This document shows positions 5,466 to 45,545 of a stretch of DNA of 64,000 nt, in pieces; within the stretch, counting starts at the first letter, position 1, and each line of letters opens with the position of its first letter. Location: positions 193,844 to 257,843 of the forward strand of contig DATEZQ010000003.1 of the NCBI GenBank assembly GCA_035583355.1. Direction: 5' to 3'. The DNA is from Minisyncoccota bacterium. Its GTDB lineage: Bacteria; Patescibacteriota; Minisyncoccia; Phycocordibacterales; UBA6899. A program made the translations under genes and the position numbers. Under the pieces are notes generated by a model, which did not search any database, was not told the DNA's origin, and saw only the letters and a list, made by a program, of their open reading frames with translations.

Positions 5466-5550
5466 GCGACCTTGCCCTCACGCTTCGGCATGCGACTCGC
5501 TCACCGTACTCCATGTACGGCTCGCTAGAGTTCGCACGCCTCCAGCGAGG
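5466..5550 (+). repeat. intergenic repeat family copy A (downstream of fusA)
   Basis: Shares cctcacgcttcg, a GTAC-core palindrome, ctcgctagagttcgcacgcctcc and tccagcgagg with the copies at 15575-15637, 19043-19265 and 45462-45545. Confidence 0.65.
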
Positions 5551-5816
5551 GCAATCTCATCCCAAATCTGAAATTTATCGTTCAAATAAAAACGCCCCTC
5601 GGCGTTTTTATTTTTCAAGATTTGCTGAAGCGCTATGACCTTGCTATTTTATTGTACTCGATAAAATGGAAAGGGGCCGGGAAAACAGCAGTTTTCCCGT
5701 GGAGGAAGGCAGTGAGTCTTCGAGCGCCCTGAACCGTGGGTTTCCGAGGAGCAATATTCCTCGCGGTTTCATTGTTTGTTATAAGTAAAAACGCCCCACG
5801 GCGTTTTTGGGGAGGT

Positions 5817-6338
5817 CTAGCGGCCAGAAAAATCTTGGGTATAGATTGCGCACTTGTAAGCGCCAGGGCTACTGATGACGGTGGGGTCTGCGAAGTCTCC
5901 GTTTGGGAGACAGAGCGACATGGTGTCGGACAAATATCCCGTTTGTAGTTTATACCCCGCACCATTTGAAGCATAGTGATAGCCTTCCGTTACGCCTACT
6001 CCCGCACAGCCACTGGGGTCGATTGGCAGTATGGGGATGAATTCGGGTGCAAGGTCGGGGATGAACCCATTGCTTCCCGAGCGGTCGAGTCCCCAAGGGC
6101 CATCACCGGGATTTTTGCAAACACTAAGCCACATATTGGATGTGTTTGGGTAGGTATTGTATTTGTCTTTGTAGAGTTCGAGTGCCGTGTTGAGCTGCTT
6201 GAAGTCGCTGTAGCGTCTTGCGACACGCGCTTTCATGCGTGCACTGCTCAGTGCAGCCAGGATGACACTCGAAAGAAGTCCGATAATCGCAATCACAACC
6301 AAGAGTTCAATGAGAGTGAATCCTTTTTGATGTTTCAT
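5817..6338 (-). CDS. type IV pilin-like protein (prepilin-type N-terminal cleavage/methylation domain)
   Basis: MKHQKG|FTLIELLVVIAIIGLLSSVILAALS class III signal with conserved E5. Start taken at the M preceding the pilin leader. Confidence 0.8.
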   Translation of the reverse strand: MKHQKGFTLIELLVVIAIIGLLSSVILAALSSARMKARVARRYSDFKQLNTALELYKDKYNTYPNTSNMWLSVCKNPGDGPWGLDRSGSNGFIPDLAPEFIPILPIDPSGCAGVGVTEGYHYASNGAGYKLQTGYLSDTMSLCLPNGDFADPTVISSPGAYKCAIYTQDFSGR

Positions 6339-6448
6339 CAACGTATTATAGGTCAAAAACATATTTGAAGATACGGACAATTTCGTAAGTTTAATTGCTT
6401 ATACTCCTCAGTAGTTCGAATGTTGTTGAGTGTGAGTAGGGAGTCAAT

Positions 6449-6949
6449 CTAGAGGAGAAGCTTGCCGAGGCGGCCGTCGAAGACATTTGTACCTTGGCCG
6501 TCACGTGCGGTGACTTGGGAGGCGGGGAGAAGGTTGATGTAGGCTCTCCTTGGGTTGGTGCGGGCGAAGTAGATGTCGACGAACTGATATGAGCCAAAGC
6601 TCAGTCCTTTGGTGGTGCCTCGCACGATGTTAATGACACCTCGTTCTTGTTGGTTCGGTACAGCCATCTGAAAGTCAGAGTTCGCTGCATCGAAGTGATC
6701 TATTTTGAGTGCATCACTGTCGTAGGCGAGGACAAGCTCGGCGGCATTGATTACTGCATCTTCTGTTGAGATTGATATGCGCACATGCGTCAGCATGATG
6801 TCTCCGGTGTCATCAAGTTGCTGCATGTCGATGCTTGCATAATCTCGCGCCGCAAGTGCAAGGGATGGAAGAGCACCGCTGAATATTGCCATGAATACAA
6901 AACTCACGAAAAGACGTTGTACGCGAATACGTGAATGGAGGTGTAGCAT
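6449..6949 (-). CDS. hypothetical secreted protein
   Basis: N-terminal signal-like segment LFVSFVFMAIFSGALPSLALAA. Start chosen at the internal M. Co-directional with the upstream pilin gene. Confidence 0.45.
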   Translation of the reverse strand: MLHLHSRIRVQRLFVSFVFMAIFSGALPSLALAARDYASIDMQQLDDTGDIMLTHVRISISTEDAVINAAELVLAYDSDALKIDHFDAANSDFQMAVPNQQERGVINIVRGTTKGLSFGSYQFVDIYFARTNPRRAYINLLPASQVTARDGQGTNVFDGRLGKLLL

Positions 6950-7282
6950 AATTCGAATGAAGTATGAATTGTATAAAGAAAAACCATCGCTTAGGATGAG
7001 TCGAGAGATGTAGCACGTGTATGCGTGATACAAGGGTGACCGGTTACGCCAGTAGCTCCGCACGGTTCAGGCGTCCAAATAAGAACCGCGTTTCATTGCT
7101 TCCACCTAAGTATGTATAGTGAATTATGGTTTGCATTTTAAGTCAAGCATTTTATACTTGACTAATATAATTGTAAGTGTCATATGGGTTGTCCTAGGGC
7201 AGGTGCACAAATTCGATATTGTTCTCGTTGCATTTCTGTTTGGTTGTTGTAGTGTAACTTCAGAAAAGTATATGGAGATTCT

Positions 7283-8311
7283 ATGTGCGTGTGTGAAAAG
7301 TATCCCGAGGTCTTGCTCTCTGTGCAAAGCGTCCAAAAACTCGCGCGAGCTGATGGTTTGAGGAACGCGTCAATTGTGCGCAGAGTACTGATTGACGATC
7401 GTCCGGTTGTGCTCGTGCAAGCTTGGAATAAATACAATCAAAAAGTTCACCTCTTGCTTTGCCCTGGTGATGTCTGCTATCGCAAAGAACTGCAGGTGCT
7501 TCCGAGCGGCGAAAAAGTCCTGACTCGCATCATAGAGGACACATACAAGTGCCAACGCAAAGAAGAACTTCGAAAACAGATTCGTACTGAAGTTGAAGCT
7601 GCGTATCGGAAGGGGAAACTCTCTTATGATCCAGTGCGACTCATTATGAATATGTTTGAGCGCGTTTCTGCGGGGGAGTATCTTGGAGAGTTCAGCCCCG
7701 GCATTATTTACGTTCAAGAAGTCGCAGAGATGCTGAATCGAATATTTCTTTCAAAGCCAGGAATTCTGGGAGCAAAGTCGTTCTGTAGTTTTAAGGAACG
7801 CAAAAAGCGTTTTGCGAACGATCGGCCACCATTCTTCCTTAGTCTTGGTTTTCCGCTCGAAAAGATCATGGGAAAACTTAGGGTCGATAATTCGCTTGCG
7901 TATGCTCCGCTCACGAACGAGGAGTGTCGTACTGCTGCATTTTTCGAAGATACGCTTGCGCTTATCGAACGTCTTGTGGAGCAGAAGAAATTGGGCCTAC
8001 ATGGAATGATTCTCTGTGCCCCTTACCCCGAGGAGACGCCTGATCAAGAGCGTATATTGCTCGAGGAAAATCACAGTGCGCTGCTCTATGCGCGCGTGGA
8101 AGGGATGCATGTCTTCCAGGTGCAGCGTCATTATAATCCTGAGTTCGCGTCCCTCTGCGTTTTCAGGCAGCAAGGTGAGACGCGTGCAAAGATTGTCGCT
8201 GTGAAGAAGGTGCACCTCTCCTTTGGTGCCATATTCGGGCCAGATGTTTCGGATGTGGAATACTGGAGTGAGTGTTTCTCTTACTTCCTGTTGCATGGTC
8301 GTTTGAAATAG
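7283..8311 (+). CDS. hypothetical protein
   Basis: 342 aa ORF. Terminator hairpin ggggcacctcggtgcccc+T at 8317-8345. Confidence 0.5.
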   Translation: MCVCEKYPEVLLSVQSVQKLARADGLRNASIVRRVLIDDRPVVLVQAWNKYNQKVHLLLCPGDVCYRKELQVLPSGEKVLTRIIEDTYKCQRKEELRKQIRTEVEAAYRKGKLSYDPVRLIMNMFERVSAGEYLGEFSPGIIYVQEVAEMLNRIFLSKPGILGAKSFCSFKERKKRFANDRPPFFLSLGFPLEKIMGKLRVDNSLAYAPLTNEECRTAAFFEDTLALIERLVEQKKLGLHGMILCAPYPEETPDQERILLEENHSALLYARVEGMHVFQVQRHYNPEFASLCVFRQQGETRAKIVAVKKVHLSFGAIFGPDVSDVEYWSECFSYFLLHGRLK

Positions 8312-8428
8312 AAAGATGGGGCACCTCGGTGCCCCTTTTCGTTAGTATCTTCAATAACTGATTTCCTTGACAGGTGTCAATATTTTATGTAGTTTAAAAA
8401 CAGTAAAGCTCAAAGAAAGGGGGTCGGT

Positions 8429-8851
8429 ATGTCCAATACCAGCGCACTTTCCCCCGACGTCCTTTCGTATCTCGAAAGTATTCGTGGGGCTCCGTGCTAT
8501 CTTGAACGTTTCCTCTCTTGTCCTGATTTCAAATTCATGCGAGAAATCGCAAAGGACTTTGGCGGTATTGAAATTGCCCTCCCGAATACGCACTACACGT
8601 TTATGCTTAACGTGTATGGTGTCATCATGTTCCAACCTTCGGGCGACTATGGGTATGGTGTCACCGTCAGAGGTGTGGACGAGGATAGTGCTACTCATGA
8701 GGCGAGGGTGCGAGAGTTTCTCTCTGCGGTGCGGAAGTCCATTTATCCCGAAACGGATAGCGCATGGTGTGCATCTGTCGTTGTGCAAGCATGTTACTCC
8801 GCGATCACTGCTCGCGTGGGAAATGCCATAAAACGTAGCGTTCGTGAATGA
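8429..8851 (+). CDS. hypothetical protein
   Basis: GGGGGTCGGT SD-like sequence before the ATG. Terminator 8857-8884 after. Confidence 0.45.
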   Translation: MSNTSALSPDVLSYLESIRGAPCYLERFLSCPDFKFMREIAKDFGGIEIALPNTHYTFMLNVYGVIMFQPSGDYGYGVTVRGVDEDSATHEARVREFLSAVRKSIYPETDSAWCASVVVQACYSAITARVGNAIKRSVRE

Positions 8852-8912
8852 TGTGAAGCGCCGACCTGGTCGGCGCTTTTTTGTTGCTTTACCCCTCTGG
8901 TATAATACTAAT

Positions 8913-9935
8913 ATGATCGAATCCTTACATAACCATACGACGGCGTCCGACGGCAGACTTTCTCATAAAGAATTATTTAGCCTCGCAGAGCAGCTCGGAG
9001 TTGGAGTACTTGCATATACTGATCATGATGCACTTCCTGATGATAATGCACTAAAGTTTCTTGAGTCGGTGCGTGATCGGAAGACGAAGTGGATCATTGG
9101 GATGGAAATCACCGCGTCACTCCCCGATGAGTGTTACGGTCACACAGGTACGATTCATGTGGTCGGACTATTCCTTGATCCACACAACGAAGCACTTCGT
9201 GAGCATGCACGCAAGGCACAGGAGGCACGCATTGAGCGCATGCAAATAATCGTACGCAAGTTGAGTGACTTAGGTTTCATGATTTCTGAGCAAGACTGCC
9301 TCAAGGAGAGTGGTGGTGAGTCTGTAGGTCGTGTCCATATTGCAGCTGCGCTCGAGTCGCATCCGGAGAATGGCGCAGTGCTCCAGCACTTGATGCTTCA
9401 GATGGAAGTTGCTGGTCGCACTGATAAGCGTATCGGTGACAAATATGCCCGTATGATTGCAATAGGCCCGCGGCAATATATATATGATGTATGCCTTTCT
9501 CCTGATGCATTCAAACCCGCATATGTTGAGGCGCGTTATACCCCAGATATTGATGAAGCAACGACGCTCATTCGTCATGCGGGAGGTATGTCATTCATCG
9601 CACATTACTCGTACGAGCGAAAGAAGCTGCCGATGGAGACGGTACGCGCATTGCTTCGAGAGAATCGCGTTGATGGAGTAGAGGTCGTTTATGGTGCGGG
9701 GATGAAGAATACAAGTGAAGCTGCGACATTCGAAGAAGATAAGATTGCGCTACGTACACTCTGTACGTTGTATGGCAGGCAGATCTCGGGAGGAGCTGAT
9801 GCGCATTCCACTGAAGACCTCGAGCGTTACGCTGCAGATAAATCTTTCTCTGGAGAGAGTAAGGGATTGGCTGCAAAGATCATTGCTACTGGTCAGGTGG
9901 AGGTGCGTAATTCATCAATCACTATTACATCATAA
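8913..9935 (+). CDS. PHP-domain phosphoesterase
   Basis: MIESLHNHTTASDGRLSHKELFSLAEQLGVGVLAYTDHD is a PHP (polymerase and histidinol phosphatase) N-terminal His/Asp motif. TATAAT directly upstream. Confidence 0.7.
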   Translation: MIESLHNHTTASDGRLSHKELFSLAEQLGVGVLAYTDHDALPDDNALKFLESVRDRKTKWIIGMEITASLPDECYGHTGTIHVVGLFLDPHNEALREHARKAQEARIERMQIIVRKLSDLGFMISEQDCLKESGGESVGRVHIAAALESHPENGAVLQHLMLQMEVAGRTDKRIGDKYARMIAIGPRQYIYDVCLSPDAFKPAYVEARYTPDIDEATTLIRHAGGMSFIAHYSYERKKLPMETVRALLRENRVDGVEVVYGAGMKNTSEAATFEEDKIALRTLCTLYGRQISGGADAHSTEDLERYAADKSFSGESKGLAAKIIATGQVEVRNSSITITS

Positions 9936-9965
9936 AGAAAATCGCCACCCTAAGGTGGCGAGTTT

Positions 9966-10979
9966 TTATTTCGGTTTCGGAATGCCGAGGTGGAGAAGGA
10001 ACTCACCTCGATCGCTTCCATAGGAACTTGTGAGGAGGTCGAGCTTCACGGGAATTTCCCTGCTCGCATCTTTGCCATTGAAGTCAAGTGTGATCGTCGT
10101 CGATTGCTTGCTCGAAAACTTTTGACGAATCCCACTGTGCCTGTAGCTGCTAATGAGGCTTTTCTGCGTGATCGCCTGTCGGCCGATGAAAATGTCGTAG
10201 ATGCGAAACTTGTTGCCATCTTTCGAGGTAACCTGCGTCGCTCCGCGACCATACTTGCTGAACAGGTGATCGCCGATCGTGAGCTCACTGTCGGCTCCGA
10301 GATTTGTTACAAGGATGTCGACATAGATGCTATTGGGCCGCTCGCTCAATATATAGAAGCGCTTGACTTCGAAGGTGAAGCCATTCTGCTTCACCATGAC
10401 TTCGGTTGTGCTCCCTGCTGCACTCGTGTGCTGATCGGGCCCGAATTCCTGAAACGACATGCGCAAGAGATCAGAGACGAATTCATCTTTCAGAATCGTC
10501 GCACTTGCAACGCTGAGCACTTCGCCTGAGGTTGAGCTGATGAGTCTTGCATTGATGCGGAGCCCAACATTCGTATCGGTGATGCTACCCGTGAGGATCG
10601 CATCGATAGCGAGGAGCTTGCCGAGGCGCTGAATTGCTGCCCCATCGACGGGTCCGGAGAGCTCAAACTTTTGCTCTTTGAGAATCTTCACCAACAATTC
10701 GCGCTCAACGATTTGGAATTTCCGTGTCTCGAAGAGTTTCACGGTGAGCTCTTCGGCAAGGATCTTTCCGAATGCACTCGTTTGGCTATCGCCACCAGAA
10801 AGACTGAGAATCGCGATTTTGATAACGCCTGTCTGTCGGCTCTTGCTAGAGATGTCTGACGCGAGGTTTGTGATGCTTGCGTCGAAACGGTCGCTCGCGG
10901 GCTGCGCTTGAAGCGTGGGCCCAAACACAGTGAGCATGAAAGAGAAAAACAGAGAGAGAAGAACATTCCAAGGCTTCAT
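9966..10979 (-). CDS. secreted protein with CsgG/TolB-N/LpoB-like periplasmic domain (paralogue 1)
   Basis: Signal peptide MKPWNVLLSLFFSFMLTVFGPTLQA. Motif IAILSLSG...FGKILAEELTVKLFETRKFQIVERELLVKILKEQKFELSGPVD. Confidence 0.55.
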   Translation of the reverse strand: MKPWNVLLSLFFSFMLTVFGPTLQAQPASDRFDASITNLASDISSKSRQTGVIKIAILSLSGGDSQTSAFGKILAEELTVKLFETRKFQIVERELLVKILKEQKFELSGPVDGAAIQRLGKLLAIDAILTGSITDTNVGLRINARLISSTSGEVLSVASATILKDEFVSDLLRMSFQEFGPDQHTSAAGSTTEVMVKQNGFTFEVKRFYILSERPNSIYVDILVTNLGADSELTIGDHLFSKYGRGATQVTSKDGNKFRIYDIFIGRQAITQKSLISSYRHSGIRQKFSSKQSTTITLDFNGKDASREIPVKLDLLTSSYGSDRGEFLLHLGIPKPK

Positions 10980-11097
10980 GGGAGCTCCTTTGGGGGAGTG
11001 TATTCTGTGCTGAGTATGCAATATTGTCTGTGTATAGTCAAGTATTTGTTAGTTATCCCATATATAGAAAAACCGCCACAAGCTGTGGCGGTGTGCA

Positions 11098-12087
11098 TTA
11101 CTTTTTCGGCAGGTCAGTAAAGGTGATGTATCTTTGCCTGCCCGCGTCTTCGAGTCCGGTGACCGGAAGTGCGAGTGAACTACACAAATAGACATTCTTG
11201 CCCGCGTCGCGGAATTGTACGACGATAGTGATGCTTGAATGCGCAGGGAAGACGTGCGAAACGTTGTTTGCAAGCGATCGTGATGATCCAGCGATGCCAA
11301 TTCTTGGATGCCCGTACGTGGTTCCCCAGTTGGTTTGGAGAAGTCCATCATCTCCGAGCCAGCCACTTTTTCCGAAGGTCAGTTCGGTTGTGGTTGGCCC
11401 ATTATTCGTCACCATGATTTCAAATACTGCCGCCCCGAGTTCATCTTTGTACGAACGCGTGATTACGAATGTGAAGTTCTTGTGCTCGACAGTGAATTCG
11501 GGAAAGTGTGTGGTGAGGTGCGCAGCGGTCGAGGCTGGGGGAAGCGCACGGTAAGATCTGAGTGGAGCATGCTCGCCAAGGAGTCCGAGGACGAGCGCAT
11601 CTTTCTCGAGCGTTACTGCGGCAAGACTACGTATCTCTCCCGTCATTGTGTCGACAAGGCGAGCGAATACGCGAACGTCGTTCGGTCGATTCACGAATCG
11701 TCCAGTGATGATTGCCTCAACTTTGAGCAGACGCCCGAGGCTTTTTATGGAGTCTGTATCGATTGGGCCAGTGAGTTCAAGTTTTTGCTCTTTGAGCACC
11801 TTTACAATCAGCGTGCGTTCAACGATATTGAACTTACCTGTCTGGAAAAGCCTCGTTGTCATTTCTTCGGAAAGTGTGTTCCCGAGTTCAGTCTCTTTGC
11901 CAGCCAGGTTGGTGAACCCAACGACCGCAACATGCATTTCCTTTGAGCGGTAAGTTCCATCCGCGAGCTTGCCTGCAAGGGCCGCCATCTGCATATCAAA
12001 ATTACTGGGCGTGTTGGCGAGGGAGGTGTTGGCGAGAGTCAGCAGCAAAAACGTAAGAAGCAATCGCGTACAGGTAGTGATCAACAT
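11098..12087 (-). CDS. secreted protein with CsgG/TolB-N/LpoB-like periplasmic domain (paralogue 2)
   Basis: Signal peptide. VAVVGFTNLAGKETELGNTLSEEMTTRLFQTGKFNIVERTLIVKVLKEQKLELTGPID aligns with the gene at 9966-10979. Confidence 0.55.
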   Translation of the reverse strand: MLITTCTRLLLTFLLLTLANTSLANTPSNFDMQMAALAGKLADGTYRSKEMHVAVVGFTNLAGKETELGNTLSEEMTTRLFQTGKFNIVERTLIVKVLKEQKLELTGPIDTDSIKSLGRLLKVEAIITGRFVNRPNDVRVFARLVDTMTGEIRSLAAVTLEKDALVLGLLGEHAPLRSYRALPPASTAAHLTTHFPEFTVEHKNFTFVITRSYKDELGAAVFEIMVTNNGPTTTELTFGKSGWLGDDGLLQTNWGTTYGHPRIGIAGSSRSLANNVSHVFPAHSSITIVVQFRDAGKNVYLCSSLALPVTGLEDAGRQRYITFTDLPKK

Positions 12088-12260
12088 AGAATCTCCATTG
12101 CAATGTACGAGCTACATGCAGTATGCAACTATTGTTTCTGTCAGTCAAGTAATGAGAAATTTCTTCAATTGAGAGCAAAATCTAGTAATTGACATACATC
12201 ATTGTTACATGTATGGTTAGCCCAGCTGTACATTCATACTTTTTGCAAAGGGAGCCAATC

Positions 12261-12593
12261 ATGAAAGACTCTACGAAGAAAGCGATGAAATATGGCCTCT
12301 GGGCAGCGCTCATTGGTGCGCTTCTCTTTTTCTTCTATCGCGTGCGCAAGCGCATGCAGGGCCAGCAAGCAAGAAATGATGCGCGCGGCGCAAGGGTCAT
12401 TGACGCTGAGGTCATTGATATGAGCGACTGCAATATCGGCGGAATCAATCAGCCCCCTCCCGACAGTAAGGTGAAAGAAGCGGCACATGCTGCGCTTGAT
12501 GAACTGACAAGTTGGGCTGACGCGGCACAGCGTGCTGCGCAGACGGACTGGTTCCGCAAGCTGACCTCACTCAACTTCTTCTCCAAAAAGTGA
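12261..12593 (+). CDS. small membrane protein
   Basis: MKDSTKKAMKYGLWAALIGALLFFFYRVRKR has a single TM helix. AAGGGAG SD. TTGACA-17-TATGGT promoter at 12191-12225. Confidence 0.5.
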   Translation: MKDSTKKAMKYGLWAALIGALLFFFYRVRKRMQGQQARNDARGARVIDAEVIDMSDCNIGGINQPPPDSKVKEAAHAALDELTSWADAAQRAAQTDWFRKLTSLNFFSKK

Positions 12594-12604
12594 AAGGAGT
12601 TTCC

Positions 12605-13450
12605 ATGAATGCGATTCTGACTTTTCTCCGTGGCCTCGCCACAAGCGCAGGGAATGCGGTGAGCAACATACTCAAGACCATGTTCCTCGCGAGTATCTTC
12701 ATGCTCGGACTGACGTTCGTCATGTGGCTACTCAACATCTTTGGCCTGAAGGAGCTGAACTACGTGTTCTTCTTCCTTGGTGGCATCATGATTTTCTTCA
12801 TCGGATTCAATCCGGCGACGATTGTGACGAGTATTCTCGTCGGTGCCGTCGCAGGAGGGATCAATCGAGAAGGCATCATGAAGGGTGCGCTTACGGGTCC
12901 TGCTCGTTTGCTCTACTTCATCATCGGCCTCCTCTATGCCTTTTTCGCCCTTGCGGGACTCCTCGCCACGACGTCGTTCGCGGAAAGCCCGAGCTCCTTC
13001 TTTGCCATCATGGCAATGACCATGCTGCTCGGCGTCGCGACCGCTTTCGTCGGTGCAAAGGCGAGTAAGTTCGCGTTTGCGGTAGTTGCGGTGTACGCAG
13101 CCTACATCTGTGTTCGCGCAATTTGGGCGATCATTCCCGTGGAAACGAAGTACAACCTGGGAATTCCCATTTCGGCGATCCAGGACATCGACAATGTCAT
13201 CGGGACGGGATCGAAAGAAGTAAAAAGAACTATCGATGCCATCGTCACGATCGAGGAGCGCAAGGCGAACATCATTCGTGAGGAAAAGCGAAGGCAGTAT
13301 GAAGCTGCTGAAGCAGCCGCAGCAGTCCAGCGCGAGGAGGATGAACGCAGGGACAAAATCCGTCGCGCGAAAGAAGAGGAGCAGCGAGCTCATGATGAGC
13401 TCAAGAGAAAACTCGATAAGACCATCAACGACCTTGAAGGGGACAAGTAG
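12605..13450 (+). CDS. polytopic membrane protein with C-terminal charged coiled-coil
   Basis: Several hydrophobic helices followed by an EERKANIIREEKRRQYEAAEAAAAVQREEDERRDKIRRAKEEEQRAHDELKRK tail. AAAGGAG SD. Confidence 0.55.
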   Translation: MNAILTFLRGLATSAGNAVSNILKTMFLASIFMLGLTFVMWLLNIFGLKELNYVFFFLGGIMIFFIGFNPATIVTSILVGAVAGGINREGIMKGALTGPARLLYFIIGLLYAFFALAGLLATTSFAESPSSFFAIMAMTMLLGVATAFVGAKASKFAFAVVAVYAAYICVRAIWAIIPVETKYNLGIPISAIQDIDNVIGTGSKEVKRTIDAIVTIEERKANIIREEKRRQYEAAEAAAAVQREEDERRDKIRRAKEEEQRAHDELKRKLDKTINDLEGDK

Positions 13451-13465
13451 CACCAAAGGCGCACC

Positions 13466-14032
13466 ATGAGTGCGCCTTTTTTATATGTTCTTGCTTGTGC
13501 TATACTTTACTATATGGATATTCTTTCACACGCACTTTGGGGAGGGGTAGGTTTTGGTCGCAAGAATAGGAGCGATTTTTGGGCAGCATTTATGCTTGGT
13601 ATGTCTCCTGATCTCCTTGCTTTCGGCATTCCCTCAATCACAAGAATCATCACTGCATTGTCAGGAAATGGCTTACCTGAAGAGTTTCACAGGAATATGG
13701 CGTATTTTCCATCGTATGTATTTACGCTGTACTCGATAGGGCATAGTTTGGTTATATTTACACTCGCTTTCATTGCGGTGTGGATTTTTCGAAAAAAGCC
13801 ATATATTCCCTTGTTTGCTTGGTTTTTTCACATTTTTCTCGACATTTTCACCCATAGTATCGACTTTTTCCCAACGCCATTTCTATGGCCGCTCTCGGAT
13901 TACCATTTTGATGGCCAATCTTGGGGACAACCACTCATATTTATCCCTAATGTCCTCCTCCTGTTTGCTGCCTATGGTTATTGGGCGTGGATGAGAAGGA
14001 AAGATAAAATGTTGCAGTTCAAGGATTCTTGA
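13466..14032 (+). CDS. membrane-bound metal-dependent hydrolase-like protein (YdjM/DUF457-like)
   Basis: Pattern H..WG...SPDLL...GHS...HIFLDIFTHS...PFLWPLS on a multi-TM background. Alternative start at 13514. Confidence 0.45.
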   Translation: MSAPFLYVLACAILYYMDILSHALWGGVGFGRKNRSDFWAAFMLGMSPDLLAFGIPSITRIITALSGNGLPEEFHRNMAYFPSYVFTLYSIGHSLVIFTLAFIAVWIFRKKPYIPLFAWFFHIFLDIFTHSIDFFPTPFLWPLSDYHFDGQSWGQPLIFIPNVLLLFAAYGYWAWMRRKDKMLQFKDS

Positions 14033-14105
14033 CAGATATCTGAGATATTGTGAAATGAGCCAATGTTGCTTTCAGTATATTGTCCCCACGATATCCACGC
14101 AGTGC

Positions 14106-14133
14106 CTTGACTATTGCTCATGCTCTGGTATAC
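14106..14133 (+). promoter_or_regulatory. sigma70-like promoter upstream of tuf
   Basis: TTGACT, 16 nt spacer, TATACT. Confidence 0.4.
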
Positions 14134-14357
14134 TCCCATTCAACGTTGCAGTGTCTGTTTTTACGCGATTTGGCTGTCCTCCGCAAGAGGAAAACCAAAC
14201 ATACAACAGTTAAATCGCTAGGAGGAAAACGTACAGTAGCACGTGGGATTAAATAAAGTAGTAGGCCCTTCGCCTACTACCTCTTAAACTTTGCAAAATT
14301 TTTATCGAGAGATAAATTTATGTGCAATTAATAATATAAGTCATACGAATTAATTTT

Positions 14358-15551
14358 ATGGCAGCAGAAGCATTTGATCGTTCAAAGCCACACGTTAACG
14401 TGGGCACCATCGGTCACGTCGACCACGGCAAGACCACTCTTACCGCAGCGATCCTCCACGTGCTCCACATGGCAGGTTGTGAGGTGAAGATGAAGGGAGT
14501 TAACGAAATCGACTCAGCACCAGAGGAGAAGGAGCGCGGTATTACTATCGCCCTCTCACACAATGAGTATTCTACAAAGACCCGCCACTACGCACACATC
14601 GACGCACCGGGCCACGCAGACTACATCAAGAACATGATCACCGGAGCAGCACAAATGGACGGTGCAATCATCGTCGTTGCAGCAACCGATGGTCCTATGC
14701 CACAGACACGTGAGCACATCCTTCTTGCAAAGCAGGTCGGCGTACCTCGCATCATCGTCTTCTTGAACAAGGTAGACATGGTTGATGACGCTGATCTCGT
14801 TGACCTCGTTGAGGAGGAGATCCGTGATCTTCTCGAGAAGCAGGGCTTCGATCGCAATTGTCCAGTTATCCGTGGTTCAGGTCTCAAGGGACTCGAGGCT
14901 ACATCAGTTGATGACGAGTGGGCAAAGAAGATTCTTGAGCTCACTGATGCTCTCGATACCTACATCCCAGTTCCACAGCGTGATACAGCAAAGCCATTCC
15001 TTATGCCAGTTGAGGACATCTTCTCAATTGAAGGTCGTGGTACGGTTGTGACCGGAAAGATCGAGCGCGGTATCATCAAGGTTGGACAGGACATTGAGAT
15101 CGTTGGTCTCAAGGATACTGTAAAGACAACAGTGACTGGTATTGAAATGTTCAACAAGTCACTCCAGGAGGGTATGGCCGGCGACAATGCAGGTATTCTC
15201 ATCCGCGGTATCAAGAAGGAGGACGTTACTCGTGGTCAGGTGCTTGCAGCACTCGGCTCAGTAACTCCACACTCAGAGTTCGAGGCAGAGGTGTATATCC
15301 TCAGCAAGGACGAGGGTGGACGCCACACACCATTCTTCTCAGGCTACAAGCCACAGTTCTACATCCGTACAACGGACGTGACTGGTGAGGTTACACTCAA
15401 GGAGGGTGTTGAGATGGTTATGCCAGGCGATACTGTTACCTTCAAGGTAAAGTTGATCGCTCCAGTTGCACTCGAGGACCAGACACGTTTCGCTATCCGC
15501 GAGGGTGGTCGTACAGTCGGTGCTGGTGTCGTAACAAAGATCGTTAAGTAA
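14358..15551 (+). CDS. tuf: translation elongation factor Tu
   Basis: [32 protein letters not shown]...DAPGHADY...NKVD... full length, 397 aa. Confidence 0.97.
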
Positions 15552-15574: not shown

Positions 15575-15637
15575 TTGCAGTGGTTCGCCGCGCGACTCGC
15601 TCGATGTACTCAATGTACATCTCGCTAGAGTTCGCAC
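15575..15637 (+). repeat. intergenic repeat family copy D (downstream of tuf)
   Basis: gcgactcgctcgatgtactcaatgtacatctcgctagagttcgcacggctcc. Shares gcgactcgctc, the GTAC-core palindrome and ctcgctagagttcgcacg.ctcc with copy A. Confidence 0.6.
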
Positions 15638-16129: not shown

Positions 16130-16314
16130 TCTGAGCTTGCTCAAATTACACCAGTGCTTGTAATAGCATATGGTTATGTCAGTGATGACATGCACCGCAT
16201 TGAAAATTATAGGTAGTCCTCGATGATGTTGTCCGCAAGGCAACCGCTCACGGAACTACTGGAGTCCAAGACTCTTTACGCCTATGGGTTTACCCATACG
16301 CACTATTAAGTCAT

Positions 16315-34790: not shown

Positions 34791-35378
34791 ATGCGTATTG
34801 CCGCGACCCTTGAGGTTGACGAAGGTGCACGAATCGTAAGCACGATCGAGCGCGCCATTTCTTCTGCGAAGTTGTCTCCTGATTACTCTGCGAGTTTCAC
34901 GATGAGTGGAGTGACCATCACCGTTCGCGACGACTCAAGTCCGCGTCTCATCTTCGATGAATTCCTTCGTGCGCTCAACGGGCGCCTCGAGGGCGAAGTT
35001 GGTCCGTATCCCAAGGATATTCCTATCGAGGATCTCTCTGTCCCGCTTTTGCGTGCCGACATTGAAGCACTCCTCGCGGAGGCGCCTCCCATAGAGGTGG
35101 TCGATGAGGAACGCTGGCTTTTGATGAAGGAGACGAATGTCGACAATTGCGGCTATGGCCAAAGCATGGTTGCGTACGCTGAGCGTTGGGCTCGGTTGAT
35201 GCAGCTGCGCCTTGCCAGCGGTCGCAAGATTGATGATGTCGCAGGTCGCGCTTCATTCGAAGTGGACTTCGATGGTATTCGTCCACTTGTGGTGCGTCGT
35301 GCAGTCATCGAACTTTCATTGCACTGGAAATATGGTCGTGAACTGCTTGCTGAGAGCTGGCACGCACGCGGGAAATAG
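34791..35378 (+). CDS. hypothetical protein
   Basis: GGAGG before the ATG at 34791. Divergent from the FG-GAP pilin gene. Confidence 0.4.
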   Translation: MRIAATLEVDEGARIVSTIERAISSAKLSPDYSASFTMSGVTITVRDDSSPRLIFDEFLRALNGRLEGEVGPYPKDIPIEDLSVPLLRADIEALLAEAPPIEVVDEERWLLMKETNVDNCGYGQSMVAYAERWARLMQLRLASGRKIDDVAGRASFEVDFDGIRPLVVRRAVIELSLHWKYGRELLAESWHARGK

Positions 35379-35567
35379 TACACTGCTGAGCCTCGAACGA
35401 ATATGTTCGGGGCTTTTGTTTTTCCTATATGGCTTAAAATATGAGTAAAATATTGTGTCCTTTAGCCAAGAAGGCAATTTTGCTAATAGAATCTATAGGA
35501 CATTTGGTCCAATACTATACTTTGCGGAAAAAATTCAATAAATAGTGCTAAATAAGGCTAAAATCGA

Positions 35568-35596
35568 TTGACAAAAGCAAAAAATGGGAGTAGTAT
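35568..35596 (+). promoter_or_regulatory. sigma70-like promoter with ~290 nt leader upstream of rpsS
   Basis: TTGACA, 17 nt spacer, TAGTAT. A long untranslated leader runs to 35884. Confidence 0.4.
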
Positions 35597-35884
35597 CGTA
35601 TCCAAGCAAATTGAATAAGGAAATTTCTTACGCCGTGGGAGGATCAGGGGCGTTAGATTTCTATGTCAATACGCGGTCTTAGGTCTCGGTAAAGGTTCAG
35701 GTTTTGGGTGCACGCATCCTTCCTACTCGTCCCTGTCCGTCCTCAGGCATTTATAAGTATCGTTAAACTCCGGGTCTTCTTAGAGAAGCTATACGACATC
35801 CTCCCTCGTGTCGGTGATCCTTCGTAAGATTCGGCAGGAACATACAGGTGTTCGATTTCGATCGAACATCTTCATTCAACAAAT

Positions 35885-36229
35885 ATGTCGCGTTCACTCA
35901 AAAAGGGACCATACGTCTACGACCGCCTCCTCAAGAAGATTGAGGGTAAGCGTCCAGAGGATGTAGGTACCATCAAGACATGGGCACGTGCGTCGGTCAT
36001 CTCTCCAGAGATGCTCAACTTCACGTTCGGTGTCCATAACGGAAAGGACTTCATTGAAGTCAAGGTTACTGAGGATATGGTGGGCCACCGTTTCGGTGAG
36101 TTCTCACAGACTCGTAAGTTTACTCGCCACGGAGGTAAGATGCAGAAGGAACTTGAGCAGAAGCAGAAGCTTGCTGAGGTTACTGCTGCAAAGGCAGCAA
36201 AGGCTTCCGGTGATGCTAAGAAGAAGTAA
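35885..36229 (+). CDS. rpsS: 30S ribosomal protein S19
   Basis: [20 protein letters not shown]... plus a Lys/Ala-rich C-terminal extension. Confidence 0.93.
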
Positions 36230-39172: not shown

Positions 39173-39805
39173 ATGGCAAAAGTATTATCTATGAAGGAGA
39201 AGGCAGTAGCTGCTTATCCTCTCATGAAGAAGGAGTTCGGTTACACGAACCCAATGCAGGCACCAAAGCTCGAGAAGGTACTCGTATCTATCGGTACAGG
39301 TAAGAATGGTCGTGGTGACAAAAAGCGCGCTGAATTTATCGTCAGCCGCCTCGCGAGCATCACTGGTCAGAAGGCATCTCCACGCAAGGCAAAGAAGTCG
39401 ATCGCTACATTCAAGCTCCGTGAGGGCGAGATCATCGGTCAGCTCGTCACCATGCGCGGTGCTCGTATGTACGCGTTCCTCGACAAGTATCTCAACATCG
39501 CTATCCCACGTACGAAGGACTTCCGCGGATTTTCCGTCAAGTCAATCGACGCTATGGGTAACGTAACATTCGGCGTCAAGGAGCACACAGTGTTCCCTGA
39601 GTGTGCCGATGAGAACCTTGCAGACGTCTTTGGTATGGCAATCACGATTGTCACCAACTGTAAGACAAAGGCAGAGGCTGAGGCATTCCTCACGAATCTT
39701 GGTTTCCCATTCCGTCCTGAGGCTGAGCTTGCGACACGTCGCGGACTCAAGCGCACAAAGAAGGGTGCAACCAATATCACTCGTAGTGCAAAGAAGAAGA
39801 AATAA
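39173..39805 (+). CDS. rplE: 50S ribosomal protein L5
   Basis: MAKVLSMKEKAVAAYPLMKKEFGYTNPMQAPKLEKVLVSIG... with a basic C-terminal extension. Start at the internal ATG 39173. Confidence 0.92.
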   Translation: MAKVLSMKEKAVAAYPLMKKEFGYTNPMQAPKLEKVLVSIGTGKNGRGDKKRAEFIVSRLASITGQKASPRKAKKSIATFKLREGEIIGQLVTMRGARMYAFLDKYLNIAIPRTKDFRGFSVKSIDAMGNVTFGVKEHTVFPECADENLADVFGMAITIVTNCKTKAEAEAFLTNLGFPFRPEAELATRRGLKRTKKGATNITRSAKKKK

Positions 39806-39815
39806 TCTTTTTCTC

Positions 39816-39842
39816 AAAAAGAACCCGAATGGGTTCTTTTTG
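39816..39842 (+). terminator. rho-independent terminator after rplE
   Basis: aaaaagaaccc-gaat-gggttcttttt. Confidence 0.65.
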
Positions 39843-39871
39843 TTTTACTCTAAATTTGCTCATGTTATACT

Positions 39872-40414
39872 ATGCAAATGAAAGTATCATCTCGCAAAGG
39901 TTTCACGTTGATCGAATTGCTCGTGGTTATCGCAATCATTGCACTCCTCTCAAGTGTGGTGCTTGCTGCACTTTCTTCCGCACGTGCAAAGGCGCGTGAC
40001 GCACGACGCATATCGGATATAAGGCAGATCCAGCGCGCGGTTGATTTGTATGCTGATGATCACGGGGGACTTTTTCCGAATTCAGTGAACTTCGTTACGT
40101 TCAGTGATCCTGCATCTACGACCTCATGGGGCGCTAAGCGTCTTACGAGTTCTGGGCTTGCAACGTGGGATAGCGATTTTCTTCCTTTGCTTGCACCATA
40201 TATGACGAGGCTACCGAGGGACCCAATCAACGTTGCTCCATATTCTTATGACTACATTCCGGAGGGATACGGACAGTGTCCATCCTCTGCTCCGGTCGGC
40301 AGTACAACGCGATACTCCATTATTTTCTCATCTGAGGTCAGTGTGTTCAATCTTCCGTTACTGCAGGCGCCGAATTACTCTGGAGCAGCAGGGCGATATT
40401 GTATTACACCATAA
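39872..40414 (+). CDS. type IV pilin-like protein inserted between rplE and rpsN
   Basis: M(QM)KVSSRKG|FTLIELLVVIAIIALLSSVVLAAL. TATACT -10 element immediately upstream. Confidence 0.75.
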   Translation: MQMKVSSRKGFTLIELLVVIAIIALLSSVVLAALSSARAKARDARRISDIRQIQRAVDLYADDHGGLFPNSVNFVTFSDPASTTSWGAKRLTSSGLATWDSDFLPLLAPYMTRLPRDPINVAPYSYDYIPEGYGQCPSSAPVGSTTRYSIIFSSEVSVFNLPLLQAPNYSGAAGRYCITP

Positions 40415-40415
40415 G

Positions 40416-40439
40416 AAAAACCCGCCGAAGCGGGTTTTG
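40416..40439. terminator. bidirectional terminator
   Basis: aaaaacccgc-cgaa-gcgggttttg between convergent genes. Confidence 0.6.
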
Positions 40440-40440
40440 T

Positions 40441-40989
40441 TTATAAATAGGCAGCGAAGTTGTCCATCTCCGCCTTCGCGATTGCGCAACGACGGTAGGT
40501 GAAGAGGAGTTCGTTTTCGTCCGCATCTCCAGCGTCGAGCGCAGTCTGCTCCGCATTTTCGATTGCATGCGCGAACGCCTTGTTCTGGTCGGGCATGTGC
40601 GCTTTCGCTATGTTAATCGCACGGGGTAATCCACTTGCAATGAGTTCATTGCACGCGAGTACGAATCGCTCATTCCCGAGATGCGAAAGCAAGAGTGGCG
40701 AAGCAATGTGTTCGACTTCGGCACAGAACTGTTGCATCGCAGGAAGTTTCGAAAGCAGTGCAGAGAGGGGAAGTGTGCCTTCCTCGAAAGACTTACGTGC
40801 TTGGGTAATCATTGCATACATGACCGTCACGCTCCCGACCGGAAGGAGGGGATTTTGTGTGAATTCACGGCACGCTTCTTCGCATTTCACGAGGTCGTTC
40901 AAAAATGACTTGATGATGTGCCGCTTTATCGACACGATGAGTAGCCACGCCAGGACGAAGCAGACAAGAAGGGCGAGCTTGAGGAACAT
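40441..40989 (-). CDS. membrane-anchored hypothetical protein
   Basis: N-terminal TM MFLKLALLVCFVLAWLLIVSI, then a helical domain. Confidence 0.45.
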   Translation of the reverse strand: MFLKLALLVCFVLAWLLIVSIKRHIIKSFLNDLVKCEEACREFTQNPLLPVGSVTVMYAMITQARKSFEEGTLPLSALLSKLPAMQQFCAEVEHIASPLLLSHLGNERFVLACNELIASGLPRAINIAKAHMPDQNKAFAHAIENAEQTALDAGDADENELLFTYRRCAIAKAEMDNFAAYL

Positions 40990-41444
40990 GGGGCCTCCAG
41001 GGAACTCTATCTATCCTCATACTACTCCTTGTCACTGTTGTGTCAAAATGGCTAGTGGGAAGGATATTTGCACATTTATCGAGAAACGGAGAAATCTATC
41101 TATTTGGCAAGAATTTTAGCCATAAATATCTTGACTTTTCGTCATATTTCCTGTAGATTAATCGAACGGAGAAGTCATCCGCCACTCTCCTTTTGTGCCC
41201 TCTTTGGACGCAAAAGAAGTGTTGCGCGATATGCTCCCCGTATTATTCAAAGCCACTTAGTAAGTGTGCTTATTGCTGTATGCAATCTGCATTTTTATTT
41301 AAGTAGTAATTTTACAAAGCGAGGATTTTTCGCTGCGGTTGTCGCGCTGGACCACGTGAGACGAGAGAGGTGTATACGATATACATTGACCGAGTCTCGC
41401 GCGGGAAGCGCGGTAACCCCAGCAAAAAAGTCCGCTTTCAAAGT

Positions 41445-41630
41445 ATGGCAAAAAAATCAGTCATCGCGCGTAGCAAGAAGACTCCAAAGTTTTCTACACG
41501 TGCAGTGAACCGCTGTTTCAAATGCGGTCGCAAGCATGGTTTCATTCGCGACTTCGGTCTCTGTCGCATCTGTTTCCGTGAATTAGCAAACGAGGGAAAG
41601 ATCCCAGGAGTAACTAAGTCATCATGGTAG
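41445..41630 (+). CDS. rpsN: 30S ribosomal protein S14 (Z-type, zinc-binding)
   Basis: [61 protein letters not shown], 61 aa, CxxC...CxxC. Confidence 0.88.
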
Positions 41631-43657: not shown

Positions 43658-44101
43658 ATGCAGTTAAACGAACTCAAGCGCACCAACGCCAACATGGGCT
43701 CTAGCCGTGTTGGTCGTGGTGGTAAGCGCGGTAAGACCGCAGGTCGCGGTACGAAGGGTCAGAAGGCGCGTGCTGGTCACCGCATTCGCCCAAACATGCG
43801 CGATATCATCAAGAAGTATCCAAAGCTTCGTGGTTACAAGTTCTCTTCAACAGAGACAAAGCCAGAAGTGATCAATCTTGCTACTATCGAATTGCATTTC
43901 GAGAACGGTGCTACGGTTTCTCCAGCAACGCTCGTCGAAAAGAAGCTCATCCGTACGTTCGCAGGTCGCACACCAGCAATCAAGATTCTTGCTACTGGTG
44001 CGCTCACAAAGAAGCTTAACGTAACAGGCTGTATCCTTTCAAAGACTGCTATTGCAGCATTTGAGAAGGCAGGCGGCACGGTTACTGTTCTCGCTGCTTA
44101 A
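43658..44101 (+). CDS. rplO: 50S ribosomal protein L15
   Basis: MQLNELKRTNANMGSSRVGRGGKRGKTAGRGTKGQKAR... follows rpsE directly, with no rpmD (L30) gene in between. Confidence 0.9.
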   Translation: MQLNELKRTNANMGSSRVGRGGKRGKTAGRGTKGQKARAGHRIRPNMRDIIKKYPKLRGYKFSSTETKPEVINLATIELHFENGATVSPATLVEKKLIRTFAGRTPAIKILATGALTKKLNVTGCILSKTAIAAFEKAGGTVTVLAA

Positions 44102-44123
44102 TTAACCTTGTTAACTTACGCGT

Positions 44124-45395
44124 ATGACCAACTTCTTCAATAAGGTCCACGCGATCTTCGCGGACCCAGTGCTTCGTCGTCGAATGCTCTTCACGATCGG
44201 TGCATTGGTACTCTTCCGCCTCGCAGCATCAGTGCCTATTCCAGGTGTTGACGCTGCCCGCCTCGCGCGCGTCCTCGAGCAGAACCAATTCCTTGGTTTG
44301 CTCAATGTGTTCTCTGGTTCCGGTTTGGGCAATCTCTCTATCGTGATGCTCGGCGTCGGTCCAAGTATCACTGCATCGATCATCATGCAGCTCCTCACTA
44401 TGCTCTTCCCTAAGTTGAAGGCAATGTATCACGAGGAGGGCGAGATTGGTCGTAAGAAGTTCTATCAGGTGAGTCGTTTGATCACCGTACCACTTGCACT
44501 CATTCAAGGTTTTGGACTCCTCGTCCTTCTCCAGAATCAGGGCGTCTTGGGCGCATCAACACCATTCACCTTGTTCATGAACGTGCTCATTGTGACGGCA
44601 GGATCACTCCTCCTCATGTGGCTCGGCGAACTCATTACGGAATTCGGTATTGGTAATGGCTCATCGCTCATTATCTTTGCCGGTATCGTGGAGCGTATCC
44701 CAAGTATCATTGCACAGGTTGCGGCGAACTATACCGCAGCAGACATTCCGATGTACCTCGGCTTCGCTGTGGTTGCATTCGGTGTGCTCGCATCAATTAT
44801 CTTGATGTCTGAGGCAGAACGTCCTGTTCCGATTACGTATGCAAAGTCTGTTGCCGGCGGCCGCCAGGTTGGTGGTGTCGCAACGTACTTGCCACTGCGT
44901 GTGAATCAGGCAGGTGTCATCCCGATTATCTTTGCTTTGTCGATGTTCCTCTTCCCACAGCTCATTGGGGGTTTCCTCAAGGGCATGGCAAGTCCAATGG
45001 CGCAGAGCGTTGGTAATTTCTTGGTGACGTACATCTCAGGCGGTTGGGTTCATGCAATTCTCTACTTCTTGCTTGTGCTCTTCTTCACGTATTTCTACAC
45101 CGCGGTCACTTTTGATCCCGATGCAATCGCGAAGAATCTCCAGCAGAGTGGTGCATTCATTCCCGGCATTCGTCCTGGAGTTTCGACTTCAGAATATCTC
45201 GCAAAGGTAGTTGCGCGTACGACGCTCCCTGGAGCAGTCTTCCTTGCAGTCATCGCCGTGTTGCCATTCGTGATGCAAAGCCTCACGGGTAACCAGGCAC
45301 TTGCTATTGGAGGTACAGCAATCTTGATCGTTGTGTCTGTGGTCACCGATTTGGTGAAGCAGCTTAATGCTCAGCTCTCAATGAGAGAATACTAA
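44124..45395 (+). CDS. secY: preprotein translocase subunit SecY
   Basis: 423 aa polytopic membrane protein in the conserved position after rplO. …PIPGVD…LGVGPSITASIIMQLL…. Confidence 0.95.
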   Translation: MTNFFNKVHAIFADPVLRRRMLFTIGALVLFRLAASVPIPGVDAARLARVLEQNQFLGLLNVFSGSGLGNLSIVMLGVGPSITASIIMQLLTMLFPKLKAMYHEEGEIGRKKFYQVSRLITVPLALIQGFGLLVLLQNQGVLGASTPFTLFMNVLIVTAGSLLLMWLGELITEFGIGNGSSLIIFAGIVERIPSIIAQVAANYTAADIPMYLGFAVVAFGVLASIILMSEAERPVPITYAKSVAGGRQVGGVATYLPLRVNQAGVIPIIFALSMFLFPQLIGGFLKGMASPMAQSVGNFLVTYISGGWVHAILYFLLVLFFTYFYTAVTFDPDAIAKNLQQSGAFIPGIRPGVSTSEYLAKVVARTTLPGAVFLAVIAVLPFVMQSLTGNQALAIGGTAILIVVSVVTDLVKQLNAQLSMREY

Positions 45396-45423
45396 AAACA
45401 AACCCCGCAAGGGGTTTGTTTTT
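45395..45423 (+). terminator. rho-independent terminator after secY
   Basis: aaaaacaaacccc-gcaa-ggggtttgttttt. Confidence 0.65.
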
Positions 45424-45461
45424 AGTATTCCTTCCGTGTACCAAATATCCGCACTGGTCTT

Positions 45462-45545
45462 TTTGTCTGGGGCGACCTCACGCTTCGCCCTCCATGTACC
45501 ACTGTACATTATCGGGCTCCAGCGAGGCCGCCGCAGACAAAAATA
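45462..45545 (+). repeat. intergenic repeat family copy B (short form, downstream of secY)
   Basis: ctttttgtctggggcgacctcacgcttcgccc...gtaccactgtac...gggctccagcgaggccgccgcagacaaaaat. Its termini match the long copy at 19043-19265. Confidence 0.65.

Follow-up and report, generated by a model that had tools for sequence, protein, structure and literature searches.

The 64,000-nucleotide stretch analysed here (the window) comes from a Minisyncoccota bacterium of the Patescibacteriota (contig DATEZQ010000003.1, positions 193,844 to 257,843 of the forward strand; coordinates below are those of the window) and carries the genes of the str, S10 and spc translation operons, among them fusA (EF-G), tuf (EF-Tu), rplB (L2), rpsN (S14) and secY. 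Beside these genes lie five copies of a hairpin repeat, four in one orientation and one in the opposite. The element is a previously undescribed, lineage-specific hairpin repeat family in which base-pairing is strictly kept while sequence and positions turn over fast. The copies in the window are the following.

5448-5578, minus strand: copy A, full-length form, 111 nt past the fusA stop codon
15551-15678, minus strand: copy B, full-length form, the first 128 nt of the tuf-rpsJ spacer
19037-19273, minus strand: copy C, long form, 93 nt past rplB, behind the rplB terminator (18957-18988)
45449-45555, minus strand: copy D, short form, 53 nt past secY, behind the secY terminator (approximately 45397-45424)
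41298-41440, plus strand: fifth copy, a hairpin at 41314-41440 with a 5' tail of about 16 nt, 5 nt before rpsN

Copies A to D had been noticed in a preliminary description as four structured repeat stretches, and the shared blocks, the folds and a covariance model all identify them as a true family; their neighbours fusA, tuf, rplB and secY are likewise confirmed by homologues and by the Pfam tables of relatives. The extents given in that description are those of the cores, and the full elements listed above are longer, including outer A/U-rich stems. Its count of four was incomplete, the fifth copy on the opposite strand upstream of rpsN having been missed. It was also right that two copies have the same termini and differ by about 130 extra nt, but these are the third and fourth copies (19043 and 45462) and not the second and third. 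Each shared block is exact in two or three copies, where less than one match is expected by chance: CCTCACGCTTCG at 5476, 19060 and 45476, CTCGCTAGAGTTCGCACG at 5521 and 15621 (chance expectation 0.06 matches) and GCGACTCGCTC at 5492 and 15592, with CTCCAGCGAGG found at 5540, 19238 and 45517. A repeat search of the window pairs 5484-5544 with 15584-15644 (84%) and 19206-19265 with 45485-45544 (83%). The copies measure 105-131 nt, with one of 237 nt, and all of them fold far better than shuffled sequences (z = -4.5 to -11). Aligning only the four window copies with MAFFT gave nothing of structural use; the alignment taken instead comprises 12 full-length copies from relatives, and from it the covariance model (R1) was built; matches to the element score 26-138 bits, the short copies reaching E = 1e-10 to 1e-36.

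The anatomy of the element is given 5' to 3' on the strand that carries UGGA and folds best (hereafter the UGGA strand; minus for copies A-D). A short tail is followed by an outer stem, a GA-type mismatch, a UUUUUG/CAAAAA helix, a GG/GA mismatch, stem 1, an invariant asymmetric loop (U-GGA-G / C-GA-A) and stem 2. Most copies then carry a module composed of AACUCUAGCGAG, a tip hairpin of 6-7 bp and GAGCGAGU, with a tandem GA/GA mismatch; this module is reduced to a bare hairpin in copy D and enlarged by about 130 nt in copy C. The internal loops are purine-rich throughout on the UGGA strand (tandem GA/GA, GG/GA, GGA/GA). The outer stem varies among sites and subfamilies, often ending in TA (TA-AACAAGUCUUUUUG); the outermost 6-10 bp are site-dependent and conservation starts at UCUUUUUG/CAAAAAUC. 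The GTAC core, formerly counted among the shared blocks, turns out to be inessential, as it covaries to GGGC/GCCC and other pairs in relatives. No conserved open reading frame (ORF) crosses the element; a small ORF beginning in the conserved AUGAAAC tail was considered and rejected because of early stops, seen by inspection in copy D and in copies from two relatives (L094 and L103).

Several known structures were compared with the hairpin and set aside. The UGGA/GAA loop (5'-GGA-3' / 5'-GA-3') could form tandem G.A pairs and a one-base bulge; a kink-turn was rejected on inspection of the alignment, the canonical 3-nt bulge being absent, and the sarcin-ricin motif was likewise unmatched on inspection. 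A likeness of GAGCCGUAC...GUACGG to group II intron domain V was rejected, as the stem covaries freely and has no Rfam match. On both strands a U-run lies 5' and an A-run 3' of the hairpin, and the tails hold 0-7 T in 10 nt without pattern. Because these runs are the wrong way round and no U-tract follows the stem on either strand, the element is not an intrinsic (rho-independent) terminator; separate canonical terminators precede copies A, C and D.

Copy A lies between a terminator on the fusA side (5415-5441) and that of a convergent pilin-like gene (5588-5610), and has TA at both ends. Its internal-loop halves on the minus strand are GAA at 5484-5486 and UGGA at 5541-5544; it matches model R1 with 98.4 bits (E 3e-24) as well as a hand-written hairpin descriptor, and its minus strand folds at -58.8 vs -45.7 kcal/mol for the plus strand. 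The outer stem of copy B begins at the tuf stop codon, with loop halves at 15584-15586 and 15641-15644, a score of 138.4 bits (E 1e-35) and folding energies of -65.9 and -47.7 kcal/mol (minus and plus). From the end of copy B to the rpsJ start, a 91-nt segment (15679-15769) shows 91-96% identity in L094-L096, above the conservation of tuf third codon positions. It includes a small hairpin (AAUCGU...ACGAUU) and presumably serves as promoter or leader for the S10 operon. Copy C agrees with the other copies in its base and in its UGGA/GAA loop (halves at 19068-19070 and 19239-19242), folds at -100 vs -88 kcal/mol (minus and plus) and matches the descriptor. Its apical part is a unique branched insert of about 130 nt, for which there is no other match and because of which model R1 misses this copy. 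The rplB terminator that precedes copy C lies inside an inverted repeat (18911-19034, 60 + 60 nt, 82% complementary) that overlaps the end of the rplB coding region and is conserved in L094 and L096. Copy D has its apical module cut to a 6-bp GUAC hairpin, with loop halves at 45484-45486 and 45518-45521, a score of 49.4 bits (E 3e-10) and energies of -51.6 and -45.6 kcal/mol (minus and plus). The fifth copy matches on the plus strand with 75.1 bits (E 1.5e-17) and folds at -62 vs -57 kcal/mol (plus and minus). A promoter-like sequence (TTGACT-17-TAGATT, 41131-41159) stands upstream of it and rpsN starts at 41446, so that the fifth copy is probably within the rpsN 5' untranslated region (UTR).

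Relatives were found through homologues of EF-Tu, 94-99% identical to that of the window (L094-L097), and of SecY, 82-86% identical (L100-L104), while L001 and L002 are two assemblies that represent the window organism itself or a strain close to it; about 160 kb of clade DNA, anchored on the str, S10 and spc operons, was sampled. The window EF-Tu is identical to a protein of a 'Candidatus Paceibacterota' metagenome-assembled genome (MAG), and the closest SecY in GTDB species shares only 60% identity with that of the window. The search of related genomes that the preliminary description had proposed recovers about 20 further copies in close relatives with an EF-Tu identity of 94% or more or a SecY identity of about 82-83%, with 2-5 per locus of 5-21 kb in most relatives sampled and none at the sampled locus of L104. 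The tuf-rpsJ copy is at the same position in all five genomes compared (the window and L094-L097). The sequence of copy D is unchanged in L001 and L002, and L100 and L102 also carry a copy there; L100, L101, L103 and L002 each have one that matches the fifth in position and orientation. Other sites occupied in relatives are post-fusA, post-rplB, rpsJ-rplC, rplC-rplD, rplW-rplB, rplN-rplX, rplF-rplR, post-secY and, once, behind a pilus-assembly gene (T2SSF). Eight independent metagenome or MAG records (ENA, JGI, NCBI, Logan) contain homologous copies.

Beyond these relatives the family disappears. The covariance model has no match in L098 and L099, where EF-Tu is 89-90% identical, or in 19 loci of more distant Patescibacteria, and in 1.05 Mb of other loci it finds nothing at E <= 0.01 outside L001, L002 and two close relatives. 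The comparison with chance expectation that the preliminary description had called for thus favours a real family both for the shared blocks and for the model, which matches none of the unrelated loci. BLAST and the hairpin descriptor detect nothing convincing outside the clade in 80 SecY loci from GTDB species, and collections of phages, plasmids and viral contigs yield no match. Rfam has no match to the element at gathering score in the window and no relevant one at E <= 10 around copies A and C, where the only overlap is a chance match of the eukaryotic JPX long non-coding RNA model to copy A (14.7 bits against a 55-bit cut-off). A metagenome search with the pattern TCACGCTTCGSC-N20-50-GSCTCCAGCGA returned 11 matches, which were rejected as relatives: they lie in high-GC (coding) DNA and lack the hairpin, and are thus attributable to chance. 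As every match comes from a close relative or strain of the window organism, the distribution of the family is limited to a single narrow clade. Searches of the literature found no account of structured repeats in Patescibacteria.

The placement of the copies is strongly patterned. Relative to the upstream gene, the UGGA strand is antisense at 10 of 12 independent sites (after fusA, tuf, rpsJ, rplC, rplW, rplB, rplN, rplF, secY and T2SSF), and at the other two, just before rpsN and rplC, it is sense. Its 3' end faces the nearest stop or start codon at all 12 sites, often touching it. Translation genes of the str, S10 and spc clusters flank 11 of the 12, a count drawn from sampling that was anchored on these operons, though about half of the sampled 160 kb consists of other genes. 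The copy behind the T2SSF gene shows that the link to translation operons is a strong preference and not a rule. The earlier statement that all copies lie in 3' regions of translation operons accordingly holds in that most adjoin translation genes, and fails for the rpsN copy, which is in a 5' region, and for the one behind the pilus gene. Copies A, D and the post-fusA copy of L094 each lie between two terminators; copies A, C, D and one in L100 (14356-14483) lie behind the terminator of their own gene. No sigma-70-like promoter on the antisense strand is found beside copies A, B or D.

The gene order of the operons themselves, which is conserved universally, is interrupted in the window. About 9 kb of unrelated genes separate fusA from tuf (5336-14358), 17 kb separate rplB from rpsS (18943-35885) and 1.6 kb separate rplE from rpsN (39805-41446), while adk is inverted after secY (45395-49935). 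The inserted genes are often pilin-like, with five genes that carry an N-terminal methylation motif (repeat family D2). The possibility that inverted pairs of the element bracket the inserted blocks (fusA|tuf, rplB|rpsS, rplE|rpsN) was rejected, as no copy is found at the other boundaries even with filters off.

The hairpin is kept by selection, and it is kept on the UGGA strand. RNAalifold reports compensatory changes at 37 of 47 pairs among the 12 full-length copies. Across 21 aligned matches (20 copies and one reverse-strand match) 94.5% of cells are paired and double changes affect 41 of the 47 pairs, in an alignment that was fitted to the covariance model and therefore somewhat favours these pairing figures; none of 500 shuffles attains the observed value, and slid partners give 34-47% pairing. 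More specifically, the tuf-rpsJ orthologues of five genomes differ at 12-35 of 94 paired bases (13-37%) while keeping 45-47 of 47 pairs. Their stems change at approximately the rate of tuf third codon positions (10-43%), except between the window and L095, and their internal loops are less changed than the paired bases. In all copies tested the fold of the UGGA strand is more stable, by 5-20 kcal/mol, than that of its complement, and G.U pairs number 54 on the UGGA strand vs 9 on the complement (p = 6e-9). Because wobble positions differ among the tuf-rpsJ orthologues, the wobbles arose independently. A mutational bias of the genome strand was rejected as their source, since the asymmetry follows the orientation of the element and is on the plus strand in plus-strand copies.

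Close relatives, and even strains, differ through gain, loss and exchange of copies. Five spacers are occupied in only some relatives. That between rpsJ and rplC holds a copy in L095 and L096 but none in the window, L094 or L097, and each of the other four is occupied in a single genome or type of genome: rplC-rplD in L097, rplW-rplB in L096, rplN-rplX in L103 and rplF-rplR in L100-type genomes. The post-secY site of L100 holds a truncated remnant (the right half). At the post-fusA site the copies of the window and of L094 and L095 belong to different subfamilies, at the post-rplB site there are three different versions, and inner parts of copies differ from outer parts in which copies they most resemble. 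The young rplW-rplB copy of L096 is 88% identical in its inner part to the rpsJ-rplC copy of the same genome. The clearest exchange is before rpsN, where the window and L002 have flanks about 99.65% identical over 6.3 kb and the unit 41298-41441 is swapped in L002 for another family member, with 72 differences in 160 nt; the replacement still folds (-64.9 vs -48.8 kcal/mol). TA stands at both termini at 7 of 12 independent sites. Deletion in silico of the L096 rplW-rplB copy together with one TA leaves a TAG stop like that of L094, which is plausibly the ancestral state. As TA is self-complementary, a target-site duplication is inseparable from the end of an inverted repeat.

The best reading of these observations, with a probability of roughly one half, is a mobile, non-coding, duplicative hairpin repeat of the kind represented in bacteria by miniature inverted-repeat transposable elements (MITEs), ERIC, Correia and REPIN elements. 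The family has multiple dispersed copies, each non-coding and below about 300 bp in length; the element in its entirety forms an imperfect inverted repeat, which supplies the terminal inverted repeats of a bacterial MITE, and its sites are filled in some relatives and empty in others. Published hallmarks of bacterial MITEs are long and short forms, TA termini, long stem-loops and orientation effects (PMC2229807), and compensatory changes have been described in REPIN hairpins (PMC3116915), as they are found here. The preliminary comparison with long and short forms of a MITE-like element fits with the variable apical part and with the filled and empty sites and swapped alleles of relatives. Such an element would propagate by way of the UGGA strand in single-stranded form, as DNA (in the manner of REPIN or IS200-type systems) or as RNA. 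A protein acting in trans, not seen in the sampled DNA, would read the conserved GA-rich loops, and insertion would occur at TA next to stop codons, where it may be tolerated. Within operons, mostly the orientation that places the pyrimidine-rich complement in the mRNA would survive, and old copies, such as those at tuf-rpsJ and upstream of rpsN, may have been taken over for host function.

A number of observations weigh against mobility. There is no clean target-site duplication, and filled and empty rpsJ-rplC sites differ by more than a simple insertion. No transposase, recombinase or HUH/Y1 enzyme is detected by Pfam in 30 ORFs of the window, and the gene tables of the relatives are likewise without such enzymes in the sampled clade DNA. 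The outermost stems, which in a classical MITE would be the best-conserved part as transposase sites, are the most site-specific part here. The tuf-rpsJ copy has been resident at one locus in five genomes, retaining nearly all of its pairs despite the changes in its stems, and its new wobble pairs are always on the antisense strand; this resembles selection on a resident functional structure and not a selfish repeat. The proximity of 11 of 12 sites to translation-cluster genes could equally signal a function.

Comparison with known repeats shows partial likeness to each. ERIC (or IRU) elements, at 127 bp, are nearly equal in size; the whole element is an imperfect palindrome that forms one long stem-loop, it is non-coding and intergenic, often within operons or at 3' ends, it has TA termini, its presence varies among related genomes and its orientation matters (PMC2229807). 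The family described here, however, has no sequence similarity to ERIC and belongs to another phylum; it has a dominant orientation (10 of 12 sites), its preserved strand is mostly antisense to the operon, its outer stems are site-specific and its apical module is replaceable. Correia (NEMIS) elements of Neisseria, of about 107 and 155 bp, also have long and short forms that differ by an internal segment, as well as terminal inverted repeats, TA ends, gene-adjacent positions and long stem-loops in transcripts (PMC2229807). They differ in having well-conserved terminal inverted repeats of 24-26 bp, an IHF site and outward promoters, none of which is seen here, and Correia copies number hundreds, whereas the present family was counted in 64 kb and the loci of relatives only.

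REPINs are hairpins of about 100 nt made of two inverted halves, and resemble the family in compensatory changes, strand asymmetry, a single-stranded tail and vertical persistence with occasional duplication (PMC3116915). The arms of the present element are nevertheless not palindromic REPs, its alignments contain no conserved GTAG-type motif, and no RAYT (Y1 transposase) gene is found in the sampled clade DNA. REPINs are scattered randomly in extragenic space, in contrast to the clustering by translation genes seen here. Transposition of single-stranded DNA coupled to replication would also be expected to place the active strand on the lagging-strand template, which according to GC skew is the plus strand, opposite to most copies.

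Integron attC sites are 57-141 nt long, conserve their fold but poorly their sequence, have one functional strand with conserved unpaired bases and a variable terminal structure, and lie at the 3' ends of genes. The family is like them in length, in the conservation of fold over sequence, in the single preserved strand, in its unpaired bases, in its variable tip and in its position behind genes. It differs in that the box pair RYYYAAC / GTTRRRY is present in none of 24 copies on either strand, there is no integrase, and the neighbours are core ribosomal genes and not cassettes. The combination of an antisense preserved strand, site-specific outer stems, concentration in translation operons and fast exchange of stems around fixed loops is unusual with respect to all of these known elements.

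Patescibacteria (the candidate phyla radiation) have tiny, streamlined genomes, and to our knowledge very little is known of their non-coding elements. In one of their clades the operons that are most conserved in the cell, str, S10 and spc, have been colonised by a hairpin repeat with fast turnover. If selfish, the family would be a clear MITE- or REPIN-like replicator within a reduced genome, useful as a marker for typing strains, and it would warn against reading every covarying intergenic hairpin as a regulatory RNA.

The strongest alternative, possible though clearly less probable, is a functional structured RNA family transcribed from the UGGA strand, which would tune expression of the translation apparatus through a protein that binds the GA loops. 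It would act as a cis-regulator in the 5' UTR at rpsN and rplC and elsewhere as a cis-antisense RNA or as a 3' extension of convergent genes, duplication being only its origin. A wobble bias that tracks element orientation is the type of strand signal expected of RNA, and the purine-rich loops of the UGGA strand are conserved while the stems covary. The structure is kept in place at tuf-rpsJ and, across the clade, before rpsN, where a plus-strand copy stands 5 nt before the AUG with a promoter-like site upstream, and 11 of 12 sites are within translation clusters. Transcription from the UGGA strand is harder to reconcile with the lack of an antisense promoter-like site by copies A, B and D and with the position of copies A, D and the L094 post-fusA copy between two terminators. 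A narrow clade, variable occupancy of spacers and allele swaps in near-identical strains would furthermore be unusual for a regulatory RNA; the apical module is dispensable, as copy D demonstrates, and there is no relative in Rfam. This alternative and the preferred reading of a mobile repeat are not mutually exclusive, because old copies may have been co-opted. An antisense or UTR role, if true, would represent a new regulator of ribosome production.

Somewhat more doubtful is the proposal that the UGGA strand forms a rod with regularly spaced GA-rich loops that constitutes a new class of structured RNA in Patescibacteria, read by a dedicated protein and giving these gene-poor bacteria one common switch over their entire translation apparatus. 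If this were true, the element would be a 5'-UTR element at rpsN and rplC and an antisense RNA facing the 3' ends of fusA, tuf, rplB and secY, and the fast turnover of stems around kept loops would come from selection that favours stems specific to each copy.

A role of the hairpin within the sense mRNA, as a 3'-end protector against exonucleases, an RNase III or RNase E processing site or an intercistronic insulator, is unlikely. Such roles are known for REP, ERIC and Correia repeats that are co-transcribed, with ERIC and Correia as the published precedent (PMC2229807). Co-transcription with highly expressed genes is unavoidable for the copies at tuf-rpsJ, rpsJ-rplC, rplC-rplD, rplW-rplB, rplN-rplX and rplF-rplR, and on the sense strand the hairpin retains high stability (-39 to -57 kcal/mol). 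The wobbles, however, are on the wrong strand and become C.A mismatches in the mRNA at 10 of 12 sites, where the conserved loops likewise become pyrimidine-rich mismatches, and loops of this kind are unnecessary for a simple stabiliser. Several copies (A, C, D and that of L100 at 14356-14483) are behind their gene's own terminator, and no U-tract follows the hairpin on either strand. The suggestion in the preliminary description of a transcript-stabilising 3' structure is correspondingly weak, the preserved strand being antisense at most sites.

Less probable again is a site acting at the DNA level, a cruciform or protein-binding palindrome for a nucleoid protein or topoisomerase. BIMEs of Escherichia coli bind gyrase and IHF. 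Positions past very highly expressed genes or between convergent genes recall the distribution of BIME and REP sequences (REP background in PMC3116915). Binding to double-stranded DNA does not require arms of arbitrary sequence to covary, so that this form of the earlier protein-binding proposal leaves the covariation unexplained; a cruciform leaves unexplained the accumulation of G.T on one strand, and the conserved asymmetric loops would weaken its extrusion. Chance resemblance or an assembly artefact can practically be dismissed: a first metagenome scan with exact blocks gave only unrelated matches, but identical copies are present in the independent assemblies L001 and L002, homologous copies in eight independent records, and E-values reach 1e-36 with no control match in about 1 Mb.

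Other structured features were observed in and around the window. The rpsJ-rplC spacer (16196-16365) contains a structured block of about 170 nt that is conserved in all close relatives and partly in L099, with three hairpins, covariation at 15 of 35 pairs and no Rfam match; it may be an undescribed ribosomal-protein leader before rplC. A cyclic-di-GMP-II riboswitch (Rfam RF01786, 64.6 bits against a 53.5-bit cut-off) is located at 7029-7112 on the minus strand, upstream of an ORF at 6449-7063 (minus) that is followed by a pilin-like gene with an N_methyl motif (5817-6380, minus); a cyclic-di-GMP riboswitch thus heads a pilus-related cluster in a Patescibacteria genome. The 23S and 5S rRNA genes are at 55161-58376; the 55 kb upstream of them lack a 16S gene, and the window as a whole lacks tRNA genes. 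A 32-nt inverted repeat (54994-55025 / 58190-58221) brackets the 23S gene and is probably a processing stem.

A second repeat module consists of GAACGCC..GGCGTTCTTGCCCG, a variable hairpin and ATCAACTCAA, and has copies at 5337-5445 and 58498-58570 in the window, at 2354-2462 in L095 and at 3927-4050 in L002. A terminator-like hairpin comes next in three of the four copies, and the module is placed directly behind the fusA stop codon and behind the 5S rRNA gene. The latter copy adjoins a 35-nt direct repeat, AG(C/A)T(A/G)CGCTGAGTCGCTCACGGGTAGGTACGCTGC, found downstream of the 5S rRNA gene at 58573-58607 and 58666-58700 (94% identical). The module has no Rfam match. In L002, where the adjoining 6 kb are about 99.65% identical to the window, a 124-nt copy stands right after the rplE stop codon and the window has none there, and this module looks like another mobile structured one.

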